Shown here one piece after another: positions 19,465-42,945 of a stretch of DNA of 64,000 nucleotides. The stretch lies in the IMG/VR virus record IMGVR_UViG_3300035698_017294, positions 42,198 through 106,197 of that record; one strand, written 5' to 3'. Made by a program: the position numbers and the translations under genes. Every line of letters begins with the position of its first letter. Position 1 is the stretch's first letter. The DNA is from a virus. The notes beneath the pieces are model-generated. The model made no database searches, was not told the origin of the DNA, and worked only from the letters and a program-made list of their open reading frames with translations.

Positions 19465-19483
19465 AATCTCTCCTTTAATTAAG

Positions 19484-19558
19484 GGCCCCCGACCGGATTT
19501 GAACCGGCAAAAATCCTGGGCCACGGCCAGGCGCTTTAACCTATTAAGCTTCGAGGGC
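19484..19558 (-). tRNA. tRNA-His(GTG), atypical (C33, no encoded G-1)
   Basis: CCTGG-CCGTGGC-CCAGG; acceptor GCCCTCG/CGGGGGC, C73. Confidence 0.85.
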
Positions 19559-27086: not shown

Positions 27087-27888
27087 CTTACCACACTTGC
27101 TTTCACAAGCCAGCTATTAAGCTGTTGTAGTCTGGACTATATCATCATCTTCAGCATTACCTGCTAAGAGCCCGGCGTATAGTCTCTGAGGGGTCATTAC
27201 AGACTTCCCTGCGGATTGCCAATTGTTTCATTCTACACATTGTTACTTGACAAATCAGTCCAAATTTGGTAGACTTGTAGTAGTGCAGACTTTACGGGTT
27301 TCCCGCATATAGCCAGGTTCCATCTAATTATTTCTAACCAGAGGCTCAGATTCATGAAAAATATATCAAAAGATGTTTTGTCAGAAATGTATTTAACGCA
27401 GAAACTTAATCCATACGAAATAAGTAATATACTAGACTGCGATCATAAAACAGTTCGTAGATACCTAAAATTACATAAGATACAACTACGTACTGCGTCT
27501 GAGTATAATTACTTACCTCGAGTTTCGCATACTAATCCCACTAAAATAGAGTATATGCAGCCTAAATCAATAGCGGCGCATATTGCCTATTTATGCGAAG
27601 GTTGGCACACTAATAAAACTAATGGGCTTTATTTCTGTAATACAGATCCAAATTTAAATGATCTCATGTTGTGGTGCCTCAAAGAGATATACAATGCTAA
27701 AACTATTAGATTGCGCATAATGGCAAAGTCTTTAGAGTCGGCAAAGCATTTATTAACATTCTATCCTAATACACCAGTAAGTGTAGAGTTAGATAGAAAG
27801 ACACCAATACTTAGAATTGTCTCGGGCGGGAAAACATTTGCTCGGGACTTCATTAAAAACGCTTATGATATAATTGATTCACTTGGTT
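27087..27888 (-). mobile_element. group I intron after U34 of tRNA-Leu
   Basis: 5' exon ends in U, intron ends in G; core motifs ATATGCGGGAAA, AATCCGCAGGGAAG, TCAGAGACTATACG, GATATAGTCC. Confidence 0.92.
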
Positions 27889-27931: not shown

Positions 27932-28015
27932 GTACAGTTAGAGGGACTCGAACCCCCAAGGTATCACAGTACCACAACTCTCACTGCGCGTCTACCATTT
28001 TCGCCATAACTGTAC
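27932..28015 (-). ncRNA. tRNA-Leu-like mimic with the anticodon arm reduced to a GNRA hairpin
   Basis: 9-bp terminal stem, Leu-type D-arm GGCGAAAATGGTAGACGC, CAGT-GAGA-GTTG, variable arm, canonical T-arm. Confidence 0.75.
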
Positions 28016-30683: not shown

Positions 30684-31325
30684 TTATTTATCTTCTTTAA
30701 GATCAGCATTCATATCTATTGCACCGCCACCACGATAACTGGCAACGGCATTCGATGCGGTCATATATAAGTCACCTACACTAGAGCCCTTCGTTGCTCC
30801 TCGTGCGGTTTCGGCGCTAAAGTTCATAGCTCCAAGGTGCGCCATATTATAGTGAGCGAAGTTTTCTGCAGATACTCCCATATAAATGAATTCCCAATTA
30901 TACTTTTCTTTTTGATGGGCAATCATTTGTGTTAGCCGCTCGGCTGTAATTTCTTTGCTGACATTCTCCTCGCCATCCGTAGTAATCATAACGAGTACTT
31001 TTCCAGGTCGCTTGCTTTTCGGCAATCCAGATAGGCGTGCTCCTACAGTATTTATAGCCCGGCCAACCGCATCTCTAAGGGCAGTACAGCCTCTTGGGTA
31101 ATATATGTCTGCAGTAAGCTGTGGCACGTCATTAATGTTCACACCATTGTGTATCACATTATATTCGCTATCGAATATCACTAGGGTTAAATTTGCTTCA
31201 CCCGGTTCACTGCGCTGCCGTTTCACAAATTCGTTAAAACCTGTAAGTGATTCGGCAATAGGTGTTCCACTCATTGATGCACTGCGGTCTAAAACGCATA
31301 CAATCTCTGTTAAATTCTGATTCAC
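30684..31325 (-). CDS. von Willebrand factor A domain protein
   Basis: MIDAS LDRSASM, TALRDAVG, TTDGEENVS. Confidence 0.92.
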   Translation of the reverse strand: MNQNLTEIVCVLDRSASMSGTPIAESLTGFNEFVKRQRSEPGEANLTLVIFDSEYNVIHNGVNINDVPQLTADIYYPRGCTALRDAVGRAINTVGARLSGLPKSKRPGKVLVMITTDGEENVSKEITAERLTQMIAHQKEKYNWEFIYMGVSAENFAHYNMAHLGAMNFSAETARGATKGSSVGDLYMTASNAVASYRGGGAIDMNADLKEDK

Positions 31326-31452: not shown

Positions 31453-33732
31453 TTACTTCGGAACCAATTCGTGGAGATTGGACAGGCTGTAAACCTTGGT
31501 ACCATCGGGAAGGCCCCCAGGAACATCGATTCCAACATATACGTATGGCCCGTACGTGTCTTTTAACTTATCCATATTAGGGGTAGCCCAAGACACGGTA
31601 TTGGCACTCTTGCGCCTCATCAAACGAGTCATTACTCCCACTGTAATGTAAGAGCGCTTTGCAACAGCACGAAGGAGCATTGAGGTACTTGCCTTGTTGC
31701 CCTCGATCGTATTATAGTTGGCGTGACCCTTCAGGAAGAAATGCATCCACTTAGCGTACCACTTATCGCCAGTGCCCTTCATGAACATCACTGGCGACGA
31801 GATTTCACCTACGCCCCTCATGTCAGAGCGATAGCGTACGGTACTGGGCTCGAATGGCTTCCCTTTCCCGAATTCAGTGCGCATCATAAATCCGAACATC
31901 GATTCCTTGGCGTCTGCAAAGCTTTCACCTGAGTAGAGATTTACTTGTGGCACGATGTAGCGGCACTCAGGTGGCACGTTATCCAGCTTGATGTCGATAA
32001 ACTCAGTAGCGCCGTTTGGAGCCCTTACTAAATCACCGCTGTAATAAGCGAAGCCACCTTGCCGGAGGCTGGTCCAGGAGACGTGGCAGAGCATTTTAAA
32101 GTTCTCGTCCAACATGATAGCGCCGAGATCGTAATCCGTGCGCTGGTGGTTCTGATGCCAGTGAGTGAAGAAGCGAAGTATGTTAAGCTCCGGATCTTCG
32201 GAAAGTTCAGTTACAGATCCAACCGGCATAATGTTGAAACCAGTGCCCTTGCCCTTCTCGGTGAGCGGGAGTGCTAGCCCTTCAACATGCCTGTCAACAA
32301 TCAGCGTCCCAATATTTGGTAACCGCGTCACAATCTCATCGGCAATCAAATTAGAGCACTTGTCCACATCATCAGAGCGTAACCATGGGCGAGTTTCCCA
32401 CGTGATCCAAGTTTTACCCTTGGTGTTTGTAAACATGCGGTTGTTGGCTTGTGATTGTGGCATACCGTCGTCCACACGATTGATAAGGTGCTCGCCTAGC
32501 GACAACATAACACGGGCCGATACCTTTGGAAGGACTGCCTCTATGTTGTGCAACACAAGCTTTTGATTGAGCGGGTGCTGATCCGATTTAACCAAAAGAT
32601 TGTCTACGCTGCGCATGAAGTTACCAGGGTTCATTTTTAAGAGACGTGTCGCCTTTGCAACATCCGGTGGAGATGCATTCAAGGCTTCCTGTATCTCACC
32701 CGCAGTGGTTTTTACTGCCATAGCACCATAAGCCACGGCAAAGACGTCCTGTGCGCCGGACCACGCAGTGTAGGACATATCAAATGGATGAATTCTTTCA
32801 CCAAGTCGTTTCCACTCCTCTCTGAATCGCATCACGTCGTGAAGTTTACCTGGATGAAGCTGGACTACCCTGTCGAGGGCCATCATGAGCAGACGGCGTA
32901 CACGGCGAGAAAGTGATACAAACTTAGTTGGCGTTGCAAGTGTTACATCACCATCAGAAAGTGCACAAGCCAGTCGTAATACATCAGTAACGGTATCCAC
33001 TAGTATACCCATACTGGGGGCTATTGGTATGAGTTTCTCAATGTGTGCTACACGCACGGCATTTACCAATGCCTTATTTTCCCTTATTGGGAAGTCTGGT
33101 TGTATAATATCGTTAATGCACACCTCTGCTAGCCCTACCAGCATGTCTCGGCCTTCATCACTCAGCGGAACTGTACTGTCGCCAAGCTCCGTGTACAACT
33201 TCCATGATTCGCGTTGCAGCGTCTCACCAAGATGTAATACAGTGATTCGGCCCTTTGCGTGGGAAAGGAGGTCTTCGTGAGCATTCAGCATATCCTCATA
33301 GGTATGCTGGTACCTCCCGTACTTTGGAAGATCTAAAAGATTGATGGTCTGGTGGTTAACCAGAACACTAATCGGATCCACCGCGCCAGTACAGAATGCA
33401 TCTACGAGGCAATCATGCCAGTGCTCTTCTGTTGTAGGAATATTGTGTGGGAAATCAATGAAGTAGGGATTGTGCTTAACGTTGTCACCGATAAGCTCCT
33501 TGACAGCCGGTATGAGACTCTCACATATTGTCTGTACTTCGGATACGGGACATGAGGTAAGTGCCCTAATTAGGTCTGCTGAAAGCTTGAATCCGGACTT
33601 CATTAAAGCCTCATCAAGATTTAGAACAAGCATGTTCACCCTGCACCCCTCTGTGCCAGCATGATCAACTGGTACACGCAAGGTATGCGTTATAATAGTA
33701 TGCATCAGATTCATATAACTGTCTCCTTTCAT
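31453..33732 (-). CDS. large protein with C-terminal TerD-like domain; N-terminal helical region possibly ROT/TROVE-like
   Basis: DYDLGA...YSGDLVRAPNGATEFIDI TerD motif; alpha-helical N-terminal ~470 aa; visibly higher GC than its neighbours. Confidence 0.7.
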   Translation of the reverse strand: MKGDSYMNLMHTIITHTLRVPVDHAGTEGCRVNMLVLNLDEALMKSGFKLSADLIRALTSCPVSEVQTICESLIPAVKELIGDNVKHNPYFIDFPHNIPTTEEHWHDCLVDAFCTGAVDPISVLVNHQTINLLDLPKYGRYQHTYEDMLNAHEDLLSHAKGRITVLHLGETLQRESWKLYTELGDSTVPLSDEGRDMLVGLAEVCINDIIQPDFPIRENKALVNAVRVAHIEKLIPIAPSMGILVDTVTDVLRLACALSDGDVTLATPTKFVSLSRRVRRLLMMALDRVVQLHPGKLHDVMRFREEWKRLGERIHPFDMSYTAWSGAQDVFAVAYGAMAVKTTAGEIQEALNASPPDVAKATRLLKMNPGNFMRSVDNLLVKSDQHPLNQKLVLHNIEAVLPKVSARVMLSLGEHLINRVDDGMPQSQANNRMFTNTKGKTWITWETRPWLRSDDVDKCSNLIADEIVTRLPNIGTLIVDRHVEGLALPLTEKGKGTGFNIMPVGSVTELSEDPELNILRFFTHWHQNHQRTDYDLGAIMLDENFKMLCHVSWTSLRQGGFAYYSGDLVRAPNGATEFIDIKLDNVPPECRYIVPQVNLYSGESFADAKESMFGFMMRTEFGKGKPFEPSTVRYRSDMRGVGEISSPVMFMKGTGDKWYAKWMHFFLKGHANYNTIEGNKASTSMLLRAVAKRSYITVGVMTRLMRRKSANTVSWATPNMDKLKDTYGPYVYVGIDVPGGLPDGTKVYSLSNLHELVPK

Positions 33733-34292: not shown

Positions 34293-34682
34293 TTATTCCA
34301 CAATTTTTTGTTTTAATTCATCAAATGTTTGATGATGATAGCTCCGTTTGTGTGTGGATGGATCCACATGTACGAACACTATTTTATCAATTGAACAGAT
34401 GACAGTGTGATCTGTTTTATTGCGTACTTCGCAACAAACAGTATATGAAGTCTCGCCTACGTCGATAAGGTCGATACCAATCTCAATAAGGTCACCCTTA
34501 CGTGCGGGTTTCTGAAAGTTCACTTCGGATATGAGTTTTGTGACAATGCTTTTCTTGCCTGTCTTATACATAACCCATGCAGCCGCTTCTTCATCCACCC
34601 ATGCTAGTAATTGTCCACCGAATAAAGTATCATGGCTGTTTAAGTCTTGATACCTAATCAAATGGCTTGTAGTAAATTCCAT
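34293..34682 (-). CDS. acyl-CoA thioesterase (hotdog fold)
   Basis: DLNSHDTLFGGQLLAWVDEEA, VGETS, FVHVD. Confidence 0.9.
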   Translation of the reverse strand: MEFTTSHLIRYQDLNSHDTLFGGQLLAWVDEEAAAWVMYKTGKKSIVTKLISEVNFQKPARKGDLIEIGIDLIDVGETSYTVCCEVRNKTDHTVICSIDKIVFVHVDPSTHKRSYHHQTFDELKQKIVE

Positions 34683-35977
34683 TACATCCCCCTCGTTTTG
34701 CCGTGCACATGTTTTACTGTTGGAAAGCGTAACGAATATTGCTTCGTTTTCTGGTCTCGAGTTTCTTCAAAATACTGGACTGTAATTAGGTTGCCAATTA
34801 TAGCACCGGGGTTGTAGTGGTATTCTTGCCTCTGTTCCAAAGACCATCCAGACCCCACGCCAACCTCATTGTCGCGATACATTATAATTGCTTTAGTCAT
34901 TGTAGTTATTGTGTCTTCTAGTCCGGTTATTTTATTAATGATGCGGAACGGCCCAGACTTGATTCTGGTTACTGTAAACTCTGCATCGTGGAACTTTTTA
35001 AGCTTTAACAGGTTTTGCGTACGCTTACCTTCGTACGGCACATCTTTGCGAAGCATTGCACCTTCCCAGCCCTTTTTATTAGCGGCCGCAAAGAAGTCTT
35101 CAAGGTCTTCAACGCTGTGAACTATACGCTGGTTTAATGGTTTTAGGATCGTATTTTTGCGACCAATTGCTTCATATCGTAAGATGCGCTTTGTTAAGTC
35201 GGGGGATTTCTTTTTACCCTCAAACTCGTCAAGTGTTAGCATATCAAAAATCATGTATCTGGGATTTTGTATCACATGCTTTTTCTTGCGTATCTGCTTC
35301 ATTACGCTAGCAAAGTCTTCATTGCCGTGATCATCTATGATACATATTTCGCCATCAAAAACAGTATTACGTAGATCTAGTTTTTTAATTTCTTCAATAA
35401 CCAGCCCGAGTGTTTCTATGGGCTTGCCTGTTCTAGTCCACGCTTTAATATTTCCATCAGCCCCAACTATGATAATGCAGCGCACACCATCAAGCTTCCG
35501 TGATATATACCAGCTAGTTTCATATTTGCCGAACGTTACTCTGTGTATAAACTCTTTGTACTTCTCGGCTAGCGCAACCTTAAACTCCTTTATAGAGCCG
35601 GGCCAGACTTGGTTAATTTGTTTCACACCCAATCGGACCTTTAGGTTTTTATCCAACATCATGTGGACGATGTCTGCATATACTGGATACTCAGCTATAA
35701 AATGGTTAATATAGTTATGTGCCTCGTGCCCTGTTATTTTGCGGGAAGCTAAATCATCAAGCAGTGAGAATATATCCAAATGTATTTCACAGTCATCTTC
35801 CATATACGCTGCCTTCGTTAATGCTGCAGATGTTATCCCGTATGTCATATCAGGATCGTGTGCGTATATAAAATACTTTTTCAAATCTTCGTAACTTGCC
35901 AAGATGATTTTCTTAGCTGTCATCGAATTAGTTGTGTTTAGTTCATCTAAACATTCTTGTAATCTCTTTAAACTCAT
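34682..35977 (-). CDS. ATP-dependent DNA ligase
   Basis: KLDGVR, FDGE, WEGAMLR, LLKLK, VGSG, SLRFP. Confidence 0.95.
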   Translation of the reverse strand: MSLKRLQECLDELNTTNSMTAKKIILASYEDLKKYFIYAHDPDMTYGITSAALTKAAYMEDDCEIHLDIFSLLDDLASRKITGHEAHNYINHFIAEYPVYADIVHMMLDKNLKVRLGVKQINQVWPGSIKEFKVALAEKYKEFIHRVTFGKYETSWYISRKLDGVRCIIIVGADGNIKAWTRTGKPIETLGLVIEEIKKLDLRNTVFDGEICIIDDHGNEDFASVMKQIRKKKHVIQNPRYMIFDMLTLDEFEGKKKSPDLTKRILRYEAIGRKNTILKPLNQRIVHSVEDLEDFFAAANKKGWEGAMLRKDVPYEGKRTQNLLKLKKFHDAEFTVTRIKSGPFRIINKITGLEDTITTMTKAIIMYRDNEVGVGSGWSLEQRQEYHYNPGAIIGNLITVQYFEETRDQKTKQYSLRFPTVKHVHGKTRGM

Positions 35978-37148: not shown

Positions 37149-37328
37149 TTACAACTGCTGTGCTGTTACGCCAAAGACGGTGGGAAAGCGCTCCCAATGC
37201 CGCGGGCTCCCACGCCTTTTTCTCGGGAGTACCATTTAAGTTACCGCTCCTCTGGTTCGTTGCAGATGCAGGCCATCGGTGTCACTCTTTAAAGGGTGGC
37301 TGCTTCTAAGCCTACCTCGCCGCTGTAA
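37149..37328 (-). ncRNA. ncRNA family C copy 1: split mimic of the 23S rRNA GTPase-associated centre (H43/H44)
   Basis: GGTAGGCTTAGAAGCAGCCACCCTTTAAAGAGTG ... ~110-nt insert ... GCGTAACAGC, enclosed by TTACAGC/GTTGTAA. Confidence 0.75.
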
Positions 37329-37362
37329 GGTGTATTCATATGTTGTTGTGTAAATTTATGTG

Positions 37363-37542
37363 ATACAACTGCTGTGCCGAGTTTAAGTCGACTAAAGACC
37401 GCTATCCAGCTGTGATAGCTACGGACGGTTCCTCCTTCACAGGGAGGAAAAAATTATCCGCGACAATAGGTCGTTGCAAATGCAGGCTACTGCCATCAAC
37501 ATTAAAGGCTCGCGTAATTGCGTCAACACCTGGCCGTTGTAT
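37363..37542 (-). ncRNA. ncRNA family C copy 2, with the rRNA-like loops replaced
   Basis: Shares TACARCGGC, CCTTTAA, GCCTGCATYTGCAACGA, GTCTTT and GCACAGCAGTTGTA with copy 1; same 180-nt length. Confidence 0.7.
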
Positions 37543-37558
37543 AGATAAATTAAAAAGA

Positions 37559-37640
37559 AGCGGAAAGCACATGAAGTAGTTGGTACATCATAAGTGTACT
37601 GCACATTGTGCAGTTAGAAGGAACTTCATGTATGGCCACT
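37559..37640 (-). ncRNA. ncRNA family D copy 1
   Basis: AGTGG-CCAT-ACATGAAGT-TCCTTCTA...ACTTCATGT-GCTTT-CCGCT. Confidence 0.75.
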
Positions 37641-37642
37641 AA

Positions 37643-37714
37643 TGCGCCGCCCCGGACTTGAACCAGGAACCGACCTCCCCACGGAGGGTGCTCTATCTAT
37701 TGAGCTAACAGCGC
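37643..37714 (-). ncRNA. tRNA-like RNA with a collapsed anticodon loop
   Basis: Canonical acceptor, D and T arms; anticodon arm CCTCC-GTGG-GGAGG (4-nt loop). Confidence 0.72.
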
Positions 37715-37720
37715 GAAATA

Positions 37721-37800
37721 TACGGAAGGCGTTCGAAGTAAGGTTTTTAAGGATTCGCCCGCCGGGCGAATAAGTAGAAGGAACTTCGAACATAGCCGTA
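37721..37800 (-). ncRNA. ncRNA family D copy 2
   Basis: TACGG-CTAT-GTTCGAAGT-TCCTTCTA...ACTTCGAAC-GCCTT-CCGTA. Confidence 0.75.
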
Positions 37801-37812
37801 ATAAAAACAAAA

Positions 37813-37919
37813 ACAGGAAAGCAGTTAAAGTAGGTTATATAGCGGGTCTCCAACGCCTCGATAGACGCCGAGCGCCCCGCTGGGCTTTATAAGTAGAAGG
37901 AACTTTAACTATGGCCTGT
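37813..37919 (-). ncRNA. ncRNA family D copy 3
   Basis: ACAGG-CCAT-AGTTAAAGT-TCCTTCTA...ACTTTAACT-GCTTT-CCTGT. Confidence 0.75.
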
Positions 37920-37921
37920 AG

Positions 37922-38018
37922 TGGGGCACCCAGGACTCGAACCTGGAACCAACAGAGTCCGCAGCGTCATACAGCGCCGCTTACAGTCAGCTGCCCTAGC
38001 CAATTGAGCTAGCGCCCC
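37922..38018 (-). tRNA. tRNA-Tyr(GTA)-like with a 23-nt insertion at 37/38 (37958-37980)
   Basis: Removing GCGGCGCTGTATGACGCTGCGGA gives a 74-nt class I cloverleaf with loop CTGTAAC. Confidence 0.7.
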
Positions 38019-38180: not shown

Positions 38181-38209
38181 AGTATACTAAATTTAGATCT
38201 GCTTGTCAA
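38181..38209 (-). promoter_or_regulatory. consensus sigma70 promoter upstream of the ncRNA island
   Basis: TTGACA-17 nt-TATACT. Confidence 0.8.
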
Positions 38210-38672: not shown

Positions 38673-39560
38673 TTAAAAATTACCGTAGTTAACCTGTAAG
38701 CAAGTTAATCCGAGTTCCTTTCGCCACATATCTACAACTTGATCACGATCGTCCAGTACGAAGTCAACGTAATACTTGCCCTTCACATGTGCATCATATA
38801 GCTCACGCTTTACAAGGCTGTCCTTGCGATCGTCGCCAGGGTGCCGCATGAAAAGATCGGTATACTTAACTTTGTTATCAAACAACCATTCACGGGTGAG
38901 TGTCTCACATGATCCGTCGCGCCCAGATAAAAGTATCACGTGGCGAGTCGGATCTGCCATAATAAGGTCGTAAATAGGCTGACTAAGCGTGTCTAGCTTA
39001 ACCTTCTGGAATTCAAATGGCCCGCGATTACCGCGATGCAGCGCAAGAGTTCCATCAAGATCACAAATAATCGCACGTGGTAGAGCAAGATCCTGTACCA
39101 CCAAGTCAAGTTCAACATCTGGTTCTTTGATAAAGCTATCGTGGAAATCACGTATCACCTTTTCACCGACAGAGTTAGGGCAAACTAGGTCTCGGCGGAT
39201 GCACTCTTCTATAGGTACACTAAGGAAGTCCGTGTTGAGTTGTGCTACAACTGGATTTTTGCAACCCTCTTCCTTGTTGATCTCCTGCGCAATCTGCTGC
39301 ATGCGAGTCCAGTGCTTTGGGTGTAGATTTGTATCGTCTACAATAACACTGAAGCCCCCCTTTACTATTTGCTTTACCATCCAGTCGCGTGTTTTTAACA
39401 CAAGCTTTTCATTGTAAGGCGTCCACTTACCACCTAGCATCATACGCAGGTCGTCTTTGTTGACACGCTTGATCTGGCCAGGATGATCATTTACTTGTTG
39501 CTTCGCCCATGTCGACTTTCCCGACGCTGGAAGTCCCTTGACTACTATTATTTTCCTCAA
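38673..39560 (-). CDS. pnk: polynucleotide 5'-kinase/3'-phosphatase (T4 PseT-like)
   Basis: GLPASGKSTWA, DDTNL; HAD domain DLDGT, SGR, DDRDQV. Confidence 0.93.
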   Translation of the reverse strand: MRKIIVVKGLPASGKSTWAKQQVNDHPGQIKRVNKDDLRMMLGGKWTPYNEKLVLKTRDWMVKQIVKGGFSVIVDDTNLHPKHWTRMQQIAQEINKEEGCKNPVVAQLNTDFLSVPIEECIRRDLVCPNSVGEKVIRDFHDSFIKEPDVELDLVVQDLALPRAIICDLDGTLALHRGNRGPFEFQKVKLDTLSQPIYDLIMADPTRHVILLSGRDGSCETLTREWLFDNKVKYTDLFMRHPGDDRKDSLVKRELYDAHVKGKYYVDFVLDDRDQVVDMWRKELGLTCLQVNYGNF

Positions 39561-40611
39561 ACTTGATCCCCCTTTTTATTATTTTCCATATATACTCACC
39601 GGCTTTATCAAATCGCCTATCCCAAATATGGAACAGTAGGGCTGGATGCCGCTCCCGCTGAAAGCACTTAGCTACATACTTGCGCTCAGTATCAGGTGAA
39701 AGTTGCATCTTTTTAAGCGTGTTTAAGCCGCTGCGGATTAGATCGTCGTGCTTTTGATAAAACTTTGCGCATGTTTCGTCAATCCAATCCCAATGCTCTT
39801 CACCAGCGCCCTGGCGCAGGCTTTCAATCGGTTCACCTTTTATTATATAATCCAGCACAGTTTTCCCAGTCAGAGACATGCGTATACGTTGAAGCCGTTT
39901 GTACTCCTCGAACTTGACCTTCATTCTAAAGTCTTCTTTTGGGTAATACAAAACAAAGCCTTCTTTGTTCGTAAGATTAAGCTTTTGCGCACCAGCAAAG
40001 TCACGTGTTGCAATTGTATCAGCTGGGTATCGGTGCGGTGTGGGAAATCCTGGATTGTGATACGCTGTTTCTCCAAGCCTGTTGTCTATTGTTGCTACCA
40101 ATATAAGTTCTCTACGATCGCCGTAATTTATAACTAAACGATCTTCGGCGCGGTCGTCCGGATAGATGATTTCGAATTGATATGTCAACCCGTCTTTATA
40201 CTCTAAGCCACTATACTTTTCATTGAGGATTTTATTGGCTTGTATTGCCTGCTTGGAATCGAACGATCCACGTGTCGCTATGCCGCGGTAGTCACCATAG
40301 GCATACATAATGCCAGCATAGCCGTCCAGCTTATCGTATATTTCGAACTCGCTAATCGGTATTTCGCCGTCTTCTAGCTCATCAAAGTTAAAAAACTTGT
40401 ACAGCGGGCGAGAAATAACTTTCCAGTCATCATCAACAATCAATCCTCTGCACATCCTTACCGACAAGGGCCAGTACCAATCAAACATGGCCTTCTTGGT
40501 ATAGTTAAGTATCGATAATGGAATGGCTGGATCTGGATGATGCTGTAATCTTACGTACCCAGCATCCATCATATACTCAATATCTTTGCGCAGAGCGCCA
40601 TCGATAATCAT
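39487..40611 (-). CDS. T4 Rnl1-family RNA ligase
   Basis: CRGLI, KFFN, KLDG, ATRGSF, EGFV, KVKFEEY. Confidence 0.92.
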   Translation of the reverse strand: MIIDGALRKDIEYMMDAGYVRLQHHPDPAIPLSILNYTKKAMFDWYWPLSVRMCRGLIVDDDWKVISRPLYKFFNFDELEDGEIPISEFEIYDKLDGYAGIMYAYGDYRGIATRGSFDSKQAIQANKILNEKYSGLEYKDGLTYQFEIIYPDDRAEDRLVINYGDRRELILVATIDNRLGETAYHNPGFPTPHRYPADTIATRDFAGAQKLNLTNKEGFVLYYPKEDFRMKVKFEEYKRLQRIRMSLTGKTVLDYIIKGEPIESLRQGAGEEHWDWIDETCAKFYQKHDDLIRSGLNTLKKMQLSPDTERKYVAKCFQRERHPALLFHIWDRRFDKAGEYIWKIIKRGIKFEENNSSQGTSSVGKVDMGEATSK

Positions 40612-40628
40612 AATCTCTCCTTTGTTGT

Positions 40629-40650
40629 GAAAGGGAGATTGCTCTCCCTT
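40629..40650 (-). terminator. hairpin, probable terminator
   Basis: AAGGGAGA-GCAA-TCTCCCTTT. Confidence 0.5.
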
Positions 40651-40730
40651 GTTCTATTCAAGCGCTGGTAGCATTCCCGTACGGCGACGAATTTCCTCGA
40701 ATGTGTGCTCTTTTACAATAGCACCTATGA

Positions 40731-41267
40731 TTACTCCCACATTAGTGGCTGGATCAGTTCTTGGTTCCATAGTCTTGCCCCCAAAATTATGTTGTTAGCA
40801 TGTTCTTCAATCGTTGTAGCTATCTTAGTTTCTATATCCGGCAAGGCCAGTTCCAGTTGTTTGCGCACATCGCATTCTCTTTTATATCCAGGCTCAATTC
40901 CTACACAAATGTACTCTTCTGCCCCCTCGAGATACATAGTAGCCACATTACGGCCTAGCTCGTACATGCAGATTGGTTGATCAGATGGGGCGTTGCAGAA
41001 CCACATGCTGAATATGTTACACATATCAAGCGCGTTAAATTCCCAAGTTATCTGCTGTTCTGCTGCATCAGGATTACCTATTGGAAAATTAGCTCGCCTT
41101 GGATTATATACGGTTAGGGGTGTTCCACCCTCAAGATTCCTAAGCCGCCCAATAACATCTGTCTGCCATTCTGGGCAGTTGGTTATTCCACCGGCTAAGA
41201 ATACTGACACGCTGTTTTGTATTAAGTTTAAATCATCTAAGCTATCTGGAGCTGTTATTACATTCAT
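40731..41267 (-). CDS. nucleoside 2-deoxyribosyltransferase-like protein
   Basis: VFLAGGI, WQ, YNPRR, QITWE, YELG. Confidence 0.88.
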   Translation of the reverse strand: MNVITAPDSLDDLNLIQNSVSVFLAGGITNCPEWQTDVIGRLRNLEGGTPLTVYNPRRANFPIGNPDAAEQQITWEFNALDMCNIFSMWFCNAPSDQPICMYELGRNVATMYLEGAEEYICVGIEPGYKRECDVRKQLELALPDIETKIATTIEEHANNIILGARLWNQELIQPLMWE

Positions 41268-41673
41268 CTTCTTGTCCCTTTAAAAGTAAAAATACCGTCT
41301 CCGCTTTATCAACGAAGGCTTCATATTCAGGGCTGTCATCTATAATCAACCCCACTTTGAATTCTTTGCAGAGCTCGCCTTTGCTGCTCCACCACTCTTT
41401 GGCGTGTGTTTCCCAACCGCCTTTTTTATCTTTCCACAATTCTATCCCCTTGTGGCGCAGATAGTCAACTATAGAAATAACGTGCTGGTAATGAATTCCT
41501 CGCTCATACCCCAGCTTGGTAAGTTCGGCTACTACCTCTTCTCTAGACGGCCCAGACATTATAGATATCTTCATCCCTTGTGCTACAAGCATAGACGTGA
41601 TTATTTTAAAAACGTGCGGTGCCTCCGTTAGTACGCCGTGCAAATCAAACGCTATATGATCGAGGTCATCCAT
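41242..41673 (-). CDS. HAD-like protein
   Basis: FDLHGVL, MSG, K...IIDDS. Confidence 0.7.
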   Translation of the reverse strand: MDDLDHIAFDLHGVLTEAPHVFKIITSMLVAQGMKISIMSGPSREEVVAELTKLGYERGIHYQHVISIVDYLRHKGIELWKDKKGGWETHAKEWWSSKGELCKEFKVGLIIDDSPEYEAFVDKAETVFLLLKGQEDECNNSSR

Positions 41674-42616
41674 GGTGATCCCTTATAAGGTTTATAACTA
41701 ACTCATTTACTTCGTGATACGCTGGCTTTTCTCGCACCCTCGGACATATTGAGAGGGTCTTGATTAAGTCTTCTAACTCTGTTGCTCGCTCCATTACTTC
41801 TTCAATGGTGCGCTTGCCTTGCTTTATCTCTAGTATTTCTTCTTTGTATGGCAACGGAAATCTTAGATAACCGTATGTGAGTAATTCAAACGCTTGCTTT
41901 AGCAGCCTAATCAAATGTGATGCAAACTTTGTGTCATAGCCGTGTTTTGCTACTAATTCTTTGCGATTAGAAAACTTAGAGTACCGACGGTGCAGCATGG
42001 TGAGTGCCCTCTGAACAGTAATGTTCTTTGCCATGTTCTGGTCGCCGATCTGGTAAAACGCGCCCCGCCGGTCTAGGCCAGCTTCGGTTAAAATCTCTGT
42101 TGGTAGTTCTATCAATATTTGTTTTTTATCTTCTACTGATTCCAGCTCATCGATACCGCGTTCTAACTCTCTATAATTCCCCGAACGTATCACCATCTTA
42201 TGTTTCTGTGATGATGCATATCCTATATACTTTTGAACCAGCCCTTTGTGCGGAAAGAGGTGTCTATAATTAATAAACTCCTCTATGAACCAAGGCTCTT
42301 GGTGTAGGATACTTTCTTCGGGAGCATACAGAAGTTCTAATACGTTAGGGTTATTCTGAAGAGCTAGTTTAGCAAACTTGCGGATGTCATAGTATGTAAC
42401 ATCAACTGCGTCTTTTGTGTTACGCCCGTCGGCAGCTTTATCTACTATACTATCATCAACTACATCTGCTCTATGCAAGCCGAACAACATTTCACTGTTG
42501 GGAATAAAAATACCGACGCGGTCTTCGTCGGACTCTGGCGTGTCGGTGCCGTATAAATGACTACCGCTTCTTATTAGGAAACAGCAGTTGTCTTTAGCTA
42601 ATTGTTGTGTGTTCAT
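41666..42616 (-). CDS. Pol beta-superfamily nucleotidyltransferase (RlaP/YcgL-like)
   Basis: GSHLYGTDTPESDED, NPNVLE, GYDTKFASHLIRL. Confidence 0.88.
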   Translation of the reverse strand: MNTQQLAKDNCCFLIRSGSHLYGTDTPESDEDRVGIFIPNSEMLFGLHRADVVDDSIVDKAADGRNTKDAVDVTYYDIRKFAKLALQNNPNVLELLYAPEESILHQEPWFIEEFINYRHLFPHKGLVQKYIGYASSQKHKMVIRSGNYRELERGIDELESVEDKKQILIELPTEILTEAGLDRRGAFYQIGDQNMAKNITVQRALTMLHRRYSKFSNRKELVAKHGYDTKFASHLIRLLKQAFELLTYGYLRFPLPYKEEILEIKQGKRTIEEVMERATELEDLIKTLSICPRVREKPAYHEVNELVINLIRDHHG

Positions 42617-42945
42617 AATCCCATTACTATCCATATCCAAATAATGTGCAACAGTTGGTCGTACATGATATATCCCATTGGGTATAACTCAGACCCCGGA
42701 GTCGCGTAGCGTTTAAAGCCGAACCGTTTTAAGAACCACCCTATCACATGGGTACGATCTAATACGAAATGTTGTATAGCGATCAATAAAAATTTCCACC
42801 ACACCATTCCTGGGACGAGCAGAAAGAATAACATGTAAATGACGATGTGAATTACGCATGCTTTTGTGTCCTTCTTTTTATTCAACGCTAAACTATCCGG
42901 CTGGAGCATCCAGTCTCCGATAAAATGTGCCATTAGCCAGTGCAT
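42613..42945 (-). CDS. DUF3307 membrane protein
   Basis: AHFIGDW.LQ, H, HFVLD, DQLLH. Confidence 0.85.
   Translation of the reverse strand: MHWLMAHFIGDWMLQPDSLALNKKKDTKACVIHIVIYMLFFLLVPGMVWWKFLLIAIQHFVLDRTHVIGWFLKRFGFKRYATPGSELYPMGYIMYDQLLHIIWIWIVMGL

Follow-up and report, generated by a model that had tools for sequence, protein, structure and literature searches.

To our knowledge, Ro60 and its Y RNAs are the only known bacterial ribonucleoproteins (RNPs) of the modular kind in which a protein ring is combined with an adaptor RNA, and their function is so far only partly understood. In each species, Ro60 has at least two Y RNAs as partners, one with a transfer RNA (tRNA)-like module and one with a hairpin that has a pyrimidine-rich loop (PMC4201824), and the bacterial Ro-binding motif has been defined as GNCGAAN0-1G (Chen et al. 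2014, PMC4201824). A phage-encoded representative is found in the Thermus phage phiLo, which carries two Yrl RNAs (Yrl1/Yrl2) just upstream of its Ro60 gene (PMC12135203; PDB 9KOP, 9L5Y). Here, we describe three small RNA units that are encoded within 64,000 nucleotides of viral DNA (positions 42,198 to 106,197 of IMG/VR record IMGVR_UViG_3300035698_017294; the whole stretch is referred to as the window). This record comprises 106 kb and is estimated to be ~56% complete. The units belong to a real and widespread structured RNA family for which Rfam 15 holds no model, and this family co-occurs almost exclusively with the gene for a protein composed of a helical, HEAT-like domain and a domain with TerD fold.

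All three units are located on the minus strand of the window, which also carries 52 of the 57 long open reading frames (ORFs) as well as ~20 tRNA genes, a transfer-messenger RNA (tmRNA) and a group I intron, with none of these RNAs on the plus strand. The original prediction had described each unit as a combination of an end stem, an internal loop, a 9-bp stem, an invariant strand and a variable distal domain, and all of these elements were confirmed:

37559..37640, minus strand: unit 1, 82 nt, with an AGUGG/CCGCU end stem, a CCA/CUUU loop, a 10-bp stem, UCCUUCUA and two small hairpins
37721..37800, minus strand: unit 2, 80 nt, with a UACGG/CCGUA end stem, a CUA/CCUU loop, a 10-bp stem, UCCUUCUA and a GC-rich 8-bp hairpin
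37813..37919, minus strand: unit 3, 107 nt, with an ACAGG/CCUGU end stem, a CCA/CUUU loop, a 10-bp stem, UCCUUCUA and a long distal hairpin

Folding with ViennaRNA yielded one common fold for all three units, consisting of a 5-bp closing stem, a 3-nt/4-nt internal loop (CYA/CYUU) and the longer stem, which reaches 10 bp, rather than the predicted 9 bp, when its closing U-G pair is counted; beyond this pair, unpaired UCCUUCUA and the variable hairpin domain follow. The z-scores of the folds in comparison to shuffled sequences were -3.3, -5.5 and -1.9 for units 1, 2 and 3, respectively, and plus-strand folds were weaker for two of the three. The conserved octamer by itself is not significant (4 matches vs 2.2 expected), in contrast to the architecture as a whole.

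R1, a covariance model for which only the three window copies were used and with which units 1, 2 and 3 score 87.8, 95.4 and 81.3 bits, detected pairs of covarying units with differing stem sequences in unrelated viral contigs of 26-32% GC (E 5e-11 to 5e-10). Together with a looser DNA pattern, R1 led to ~20 large-phage contigs with tandem arrays; one pattern match (L009) and most of the 75 matches to the looser pattern lacked a covariance-model hit and were discarded as chance. With an enlarged covariance model (R2), for which the window units score 58.2 bits (unit 1, E 1.2e-10), 60.8 bits (unit 2) and 50.6 bits (unit 3), all 19 phage records were found to contain 3-8 units, which without exception share one strand and are grouped in one or two arrays. 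The covariation of the stems, which had been proposed from the three window copies, was upheld in this larger family. Among 39 distinct sequences, 94% of cells pair, compared to 36-48% with slid partners, and the addition of bacterial members (79 sequences) resulted in 95.6% vs 42-50%. In this larger set, compensatory (double) changes were found at 11 of 15 pairs, and none of 500 shuffles reached the observed covariation score. Furthermore, RNAalifold, applied to a plain MAFFT alignment of 20 bacterial copies, recovered the same 15 pairs de novo and left the motif UCCUUCU of the invariant strand unpaired. Since U-G and G-U pairs are frequent (47 of the 79 sequences have one at the closing pair), the RNA strand can be assigned to the strand carrying UCCUUCU, which is also the strand of the tRNAs and of most long ORFs in the window.

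Near-invariant positions of the family include the GG topping the closing stem, C-Y-A-U, and the terminal U-A pair followed by UCCUUCU as well as, on the 3' side, a U ahead of the 3' strand and (G)C-Y-U-U followed by CC. In hosts whose GC content ranges from ~25% to 65%, the UCCUUCU motif is almost unchanged, and this is more readily reconciled with a fixed contact to a protein than with a pairing target that is specific to the host; pairing of this motif with GGA-containing segments inside the unit is limited to a few units and is not conserved. An Rfam 15 cmscan of the window region, the related phage loci and the bacterial loci revealed no match to a described motif, returning only tRNA and tmRNA besides chance-level matches (among them one to Vault with 18.9 bits, which was rejected). 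For the window units, no Rfam family was matched even at E <= 10, including Y_RNA (RF00019) and YrlA (RF02553), and a blastn search of the RNA region against GenBank phages gave no match either.

One protein gene recurs beside the units. In the window, it corresponds to:

31453..33732, minus strand: candidate partner protein gene, 759 aa, with a helical HEAT-like N-domain (~aa 170-470) and a TerD-fold C-domain (~aa 500-690)

This ORF is homologous (E 1e-54) to a 752-aa ORF located between two RNA arrays of an unrelated AT-rich phage, and homologues, typically of ~700-760 aa, are encoded in all 19 RNA-bearing phage records. In 18 of these records, the units are located immediately upstream of the gene or on either side of it, within ~600 nt and on the same strand. 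Four units follow gp266 of Rhodococcus phage Weasels2, and one unit precedes orf166 of Lactobacillus phage LpeD; both phages encode distant homologues of the protein, and their units carry the variant motif CUUACUUCUA. An uncultured 485-kb phage harbors three units directly after the gene. In addition, Ruegeria phage RpAliso contains four more divergent units upstream of its homologue, which were recognised by eye and through sub-threshold YrlA matches; they were unscored by R2, and only one of four test folds gave the scaffold cleanly. Upstream of the same homologue, beside these YrlA-like units, the RpAliso genome (OR257569.1) also encodes an unannotated permuted tmRNA at positions 1596-1817 (Rfam 129 bits).

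The coupling extends to bacteria. Relatives of the protein are encoded in at least 585 stretches of the GTDB genome collection, mostly from Streptomyces, Actinomadura, Nonomuraea, Amycolatopsis and other Actinomycetota, together with one metagenome-assembled genome (MAG) each from Chloroflexia and Patescibacteria. We fetched 80 bacterial loci from GTDB by means of the protein (an unpublished genome, G071, with locus L173, was excluded and is the basis of no claim), and R2 matches were identified in all 80. Almost always, 1-3 units start ~20-30 nt past the stop codon, on the strand of the gene, and are followed by a terminator-like hairpin. Within five whole bacterial genomes (7-12 Mb), R2 matches were found only beside copies of the gene, including one genome with two gene copies that are accompanied by two units each. 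Thus, RNA and protein gene are coupled in both directions, as the loci fetched by protein carry the RNA and the genomes searched for the RNA have it only beside the gene. The other gene neighbours in bacteria were variable and uninformative. On the Patescibacteria MAG contig (SCTV01000088.1, 3397-3958), several tRNAs and one unit precede the gene and another unit follows it; given this phage-like layout, the 7-kb contig, which was binned as bacterial, may be a mis-binned phage fragment.

So far, members of the protein family have been annotated only as 'TerD family' or 'hypothetical'. The protein of the window was modelled using AlphaFold2 (mean predicted local distance difference test score 81), and its C-domain adopts the TerD beta-sandwich fold (Foldseek E 2e-7, TMt ~0.7 to 3ibz, 2qng and 2qz7; VIA Z 16-18). 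The Pfam match to TerD is sub-threshold (15.8 vs 25.3 bits), with no other Pfam match in the protein, and neither a profile search of the PDB nor PADLOC returned a match. The TerD fold takes the place of the C-terminal vWA domain with MIDAS of Ro60/TROVE proteins, and a separate vWA gene (30684-31325), which lies next to the ORF in the window, was rejected as a core component, since it was found in only 3 of 19 records and was non-adjacent in the others. Following the TerD hits, the best structural matches were Ro60 proteins, with 245-336 residues of the helical domain aligned (phiLo, Z 9.4 with 245-331 residues; Deinococcus radiodurans Rsr, Z 7.3; Xenopus, Z 6.7; human, Z 6.4). When the N-domain was folded alone and searched against 48,161 representative chains, the alignment to phiLo Ro60 covered 263 residues and was by far the longest, but its score was not above those of generic HEAT repeats. 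A Ro60-like fold of the helical domain is therefore suggestive, albeit not established. Beyond Ro60, the protein matches NCBIfam NF041916 (the MXAN_6230/SCO0854 RING family) with 299-429 bits (E 1e-89 to 1e-128) over profile positions ~172-757, which is below the equivalog cut-off of 600 and leaves the RING part unmatched. In line with this, a structure search of the ESM Atlas located the helical core in SCO0854-type RING proteins as well (TM 0.86) and returned no TROVE cluster. In this family of Actinomycetota, the helical and TerD-like core is fused to a prokaryotic RING domain; we know of no function for it. The searchable literature contains no description of the RNA motif or of TerD in connection with Ro60 or Y RNAs, apart from one paper that briefly mentions stand-alone TerD genes in jumbo phages of actinobacteria (PMC7824862).

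The units had been proposed to form a distinct Y-like RNA class, and the comparison with YrlA/YrlB and Ro60 (Rsr) supports this in part. As in Y RNAs, pairing between the 5' and 3' ends produces a long, interrupted stem with a conserved module, the distal module is variable, and several differing copies are encoded next to the protein gene in a setting of RNA-repair genes. Moreover, several lineages have at least one permuted-tRNA copy per locus and other copies with simple hairpins and a pyrimidine-rich loop. In these lineages, the variable position of one or two units per array is occupied by a full tRNA-like domain in circularly permuted order, comprising a T arm, a 7-bp acceptor stem closed by a loop, a D arm and an anticodon-like stem. 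The Rfam YrlA matches of these tRNA-bearing relatives reach 26-42 bits, whereas the gathering score is 69, and their folds are in agreement; many second or third bacterial units carry a T-arm-like GGUUCGA hairpin. The modular architecture, the YrlA-type domain in some relatives and the strict coupling to a protein whose helical domain has Ro60 as best long match are thus consistent with a Y-like class that is distinct from the families in Rfam 15. However, membership among the Y RNAs proper did not hold. The conserved module here is GG-CYAU / UCCUUCU / CYUU-CC and not GNCGAAN0-1G; neither the latter nor a GGUCCGA bulged helix near the 5' end was seen on reading the units and the family consensus, for which no pattern scan was made, and GG-CYAU and UCCUUCU occur in place of the Ro-binding motif. 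The candidate partner protein is not a Pfam TROVE protein and has the TerD domain in place of vWA, and a TROVE/Ro60 gene (Pfam) is absent from the window phage and the 18 related records (7 of which are complete). A canonical TROVE gene is present elsewhere in four of five actinobacterial genomes checked, which argues for a parallel system and not a replacement. Likenesses and differences are also seen with phiLo: there as here, a phage encodes the (here candidate) RNP, RNAs lie directly upstream of the protein gene, and among long structural matches the helical domain fits phiLo Ro60 best, although this similarity is not clearly above that of generic HEAT repeats. However, phiLo Ro60 has recognisable TROVE and vWA domains and its RNAs carry the CGAA motif, neither of which holds here. 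We would classify the system as an RNP of the Y-RNA type in which both the protein and the recognition module differ.

In the window, the units are embedded in a series of RNA genes with spacers of 2-12 nt to the flanking tRNA or tRNA-like RNA:

38181..38209, minus strand: near-consensus sigma-70-like promoter TTGACA-17-TATACT (11/12; consensus match only), upstream of the RNA array
37922..38018, minus strand: 97-nt tRNA with an insertion of ~20 nt in the anticodon arm (Rfam tRNA 46.5 bits; missed by ARAGORN)
37643..37714, minus strand: tRNA-like RNA between units 2 and 1 (ARAGORN tRNA-His(gtg); Rfam tRNA 36.7 bits)

A spacer of 2 nt separates the 3' end of the 97-nt tRNA from unit 3, which follows it on the same transcript strand; the insertion in this tRNA could represent an intron or a mimic. 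The tRNA-like RNA between units 2 and 1 forms a non-permuted cloverleaf with a 7-bp acceptor stem, a D arm and a T arm, and its 'anticodon' arm consists of 5 bp and only a 4-nt loop in the minimum free energy fold; it may therefore be a tRNA mimic rather than a decoder. A regular tRNA-His is encoded elsewhere in the window (19483-19558). Two paralogous non-coding stretches of ~180 nt (37149-37542, minus strand), which share GCCUGCAU(U/C)UGCAACGA(A)CC, are located between unit 1 and the tmRNA. Further away, ARAGORN predicted a tRNA with a 4-base anticodon (gttg; 27932-28013, minus strand), with a group I intron nearby (27114-27368, minus strand; Rfam 63 bits). A possibly comparable arrangement is that of the tRNA cluster of phage T4, in which the 'species 1/2' RNAs are small stable RNAs of unknown function that are co-transcribed and processed with the phage tRNAs; no protein is known to be linked to these T4 RNAs.

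RNA-repair genes are located 0.75-4 kb upstream of the units on the same strand:

38673..39560, minus strand: polynucleotide kinase-phosphatase (Pnkp; Pfam HAD_PNKP 1.1e-45 and AAA_33)
39487..40611, minus strand: T4 Rnl1-type RNA ligase (Pfam RNA_lig_T4_1 4.3e-10)
41666..42640, minus strand: RlaP nucleotidyltransferase (Pfam RlaP 5.4e-24)

The cassette spanning 38673-42640 (minus strand) additionally encodes a nucleoside 2-deoxyribosyltransferase-like protein, and an ATP-dependent DNA ligase is encoded at 34682-35977. In other phages, RtcB is located 3 kb downstream of the array (Weasels2), or a CCA-adding enzyme adjoins the gene (RpAliso). A tight linkage to Rnl1 or RlaP was not found, as these genes are often tens of kb away.

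Taken together, we consider it likely that the units are trans-acting small RNAs and dedicated partners of the HEAT-like (possibly Ro60-like) and TerD protein encoded at 31453-33732. They would be made within a polycistronic precursor of tRNAs and small RNAs, from which endonucleases, those that process tRNAs among them, would release them. The helical/TerD protein could then recognise a surface formed by the invariant internal loop together with the unpaired UCCUUCU strand. The variable distal module comprises plain hairpins in the window and, elsewhere, either a hairpin resembling a T arm or an entire permuted tRNA-like domain; in analogy to the Y RNAs of Ro60, it would serve as an adaptor or gate through which further factors or substrates are recruited to the protein. 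From the neighbouring genes alone, namely Pnkp, Rnl1 and RlaP in the window, RtcB in Weasels2 and the CCA-adding enzyme in RpAliso, we infer that the role is likely RNA surveillance or repair, or the manipulation of host RNA metabolism during infection.

Several observations weigh against this assignment. Of the 19 phage records, only that of the window does not have the units adjacent to the gene, the two being 3.8 kb apart, and the three window units are devoid of a tRNA-like module. The bacterial units are located directly in the 3' region of the gene, which is also compatible with a role in cis. With regard to the protein, phiLo Ro60 ranks second (Z 7.4) for the N-domain alone, amid generic HEAT-repeat matches with Z 6-7.6, and neither hhalign against nine actinobacterial TROVE proteins (probability 0.1) nor Pfam TROVE (PF05731) gave a signal for the protein. 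Linkage to repair genes is loose across the 19 records, with Rnl1 found in 6 and RlaP in 13, and for this reason, a role in repair or surveillance is put forward here as a suggestion. Finally, the sequencing runs listed with this DNA comprise salt-lake metagenome DNA runs only and no RNA-seq run.

Other explanations were ranked below that of partner RNAs, the foremost being that the units are cis elements of the protein's own mRNA, such as stabilisers in the 3' or 5' untranslated region, processing sites or autoregulatory operators. The position of the bacterial units shortly after the stop codon and ahead of a terminator-like hairpin, which is seen for all 80 loci, and the phage units that directly flank the gene would be in line with this. 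In the window, however, the tmRNA, tRNAs and two protein-coding genes lie between the units and the gene, and the units are packed against tRNAs in the manner of independent genes. Furthermore, up to eight copies occur per genome with differing distal modules, some of them whole tRNA-like domains, and every unit closes on itself through its paired 5' and 3' ends, which makes a cis role unlikely. The original prediction had also pointed to the complementarity of the invariant strand to Shine-Dalgarno-like sequences and its resemblance to the 16S tail, for which no specific support was obtained. Units that act as base-pairing small RNAs or sponges, modulating translation through UCCUUCU and Shine-Dalgarno-like AGAAGGA/AGGAGGA, would agree with the predicted unpaired state of this motif in all copies and with the AAGGAG-type ribosome-binding sites of the phage genes, but any pyrimidine tract is expected to match a Shine-Dalgarno sequence over 5-7 nt. 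Moreover, the motif, which is part of a conserved scaffold, is nearly invariant although its hosts differ widely in composition, and variants (UUACUUCU in Weasels2 and LpeD) are confined to lineages whose proteins are the most divergent, as would be expected for a protein contact. Considering that such pairing would also leave the exclusive coupling to one gene unexplained, we regard it as improbable.

Rated about as low is the idea that the units are decoys or tRNA-related mimics directed against host nucleases that target tRNAs, independent of the protein and only incidentally linked to its gene. This would account for units in tRNA clusters beside tRNA-repair enzymes and for the tRNA-like domains of some relatives, and CUUCUAA resembles what we take to be the anticodon-loop sequence of tRNA-Arg(UCU). 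However, the RNAs also occur in bacterial chromosomes, where they are found beside the gene at each of the 80 loci and away from tRNA clusters, and most bacterial units have no tRNA-like part; a decoy function is accordingly rated as very doubtful. As the units are repeated and partly palindromic, they might lastly be DNA-level repeats, for example recombination or binding sites, without any role as RNA. The probability of this is negligible, since compensatory changes preserve the pairing while the sequence diverges, the abundant G-U pairs, which fix the strand, would be A-C mismatches on the opposite strand, and the orientation of the units is always that of the gene.

Dedicated partner RNAs of the TerD protein hence remain the explanation that we favor. 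With less confidence, we lean towards a broader proposal, according to which the HEAT-like and TerD protein together with its own modular small RNAs, some of them tRNA mimics, constitutes a second, Ro60-independent RNP of the Ro/Y type. It would be widespread in Actinomycetota and would have been captured repeatedly by large phages of very different hosts, in which it would have expanded to 3-8 RNAs among tRNA and RNA-repair genes in order to control RNA quality, RNA repair or host RNA metabolism in the course of infection.

The identification of these units adds an RNA family with strong covariation that has neither an Rfam 15 model nor a description in the searchable literature. In the genomes, it is coupled in an almost one-to-one manner to a large family of uncharacterised proteins; this provides the first functional handle on these proteins, which are probably RNA-binding. 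Relatives of the protein also occur in phages of Rhodococcus, Lactobacillus and Ruegeria hosts and in uncultured large phages, and cultured systems that carry them include Streptomyces strains, Rhodococcus phage Weasels2 and Lactobacillus phage LpeD. Our findings further suggest that the use of adaptor RNAs that mimic tRNAs is more general than had been implied by the biology of Ro60 alone.
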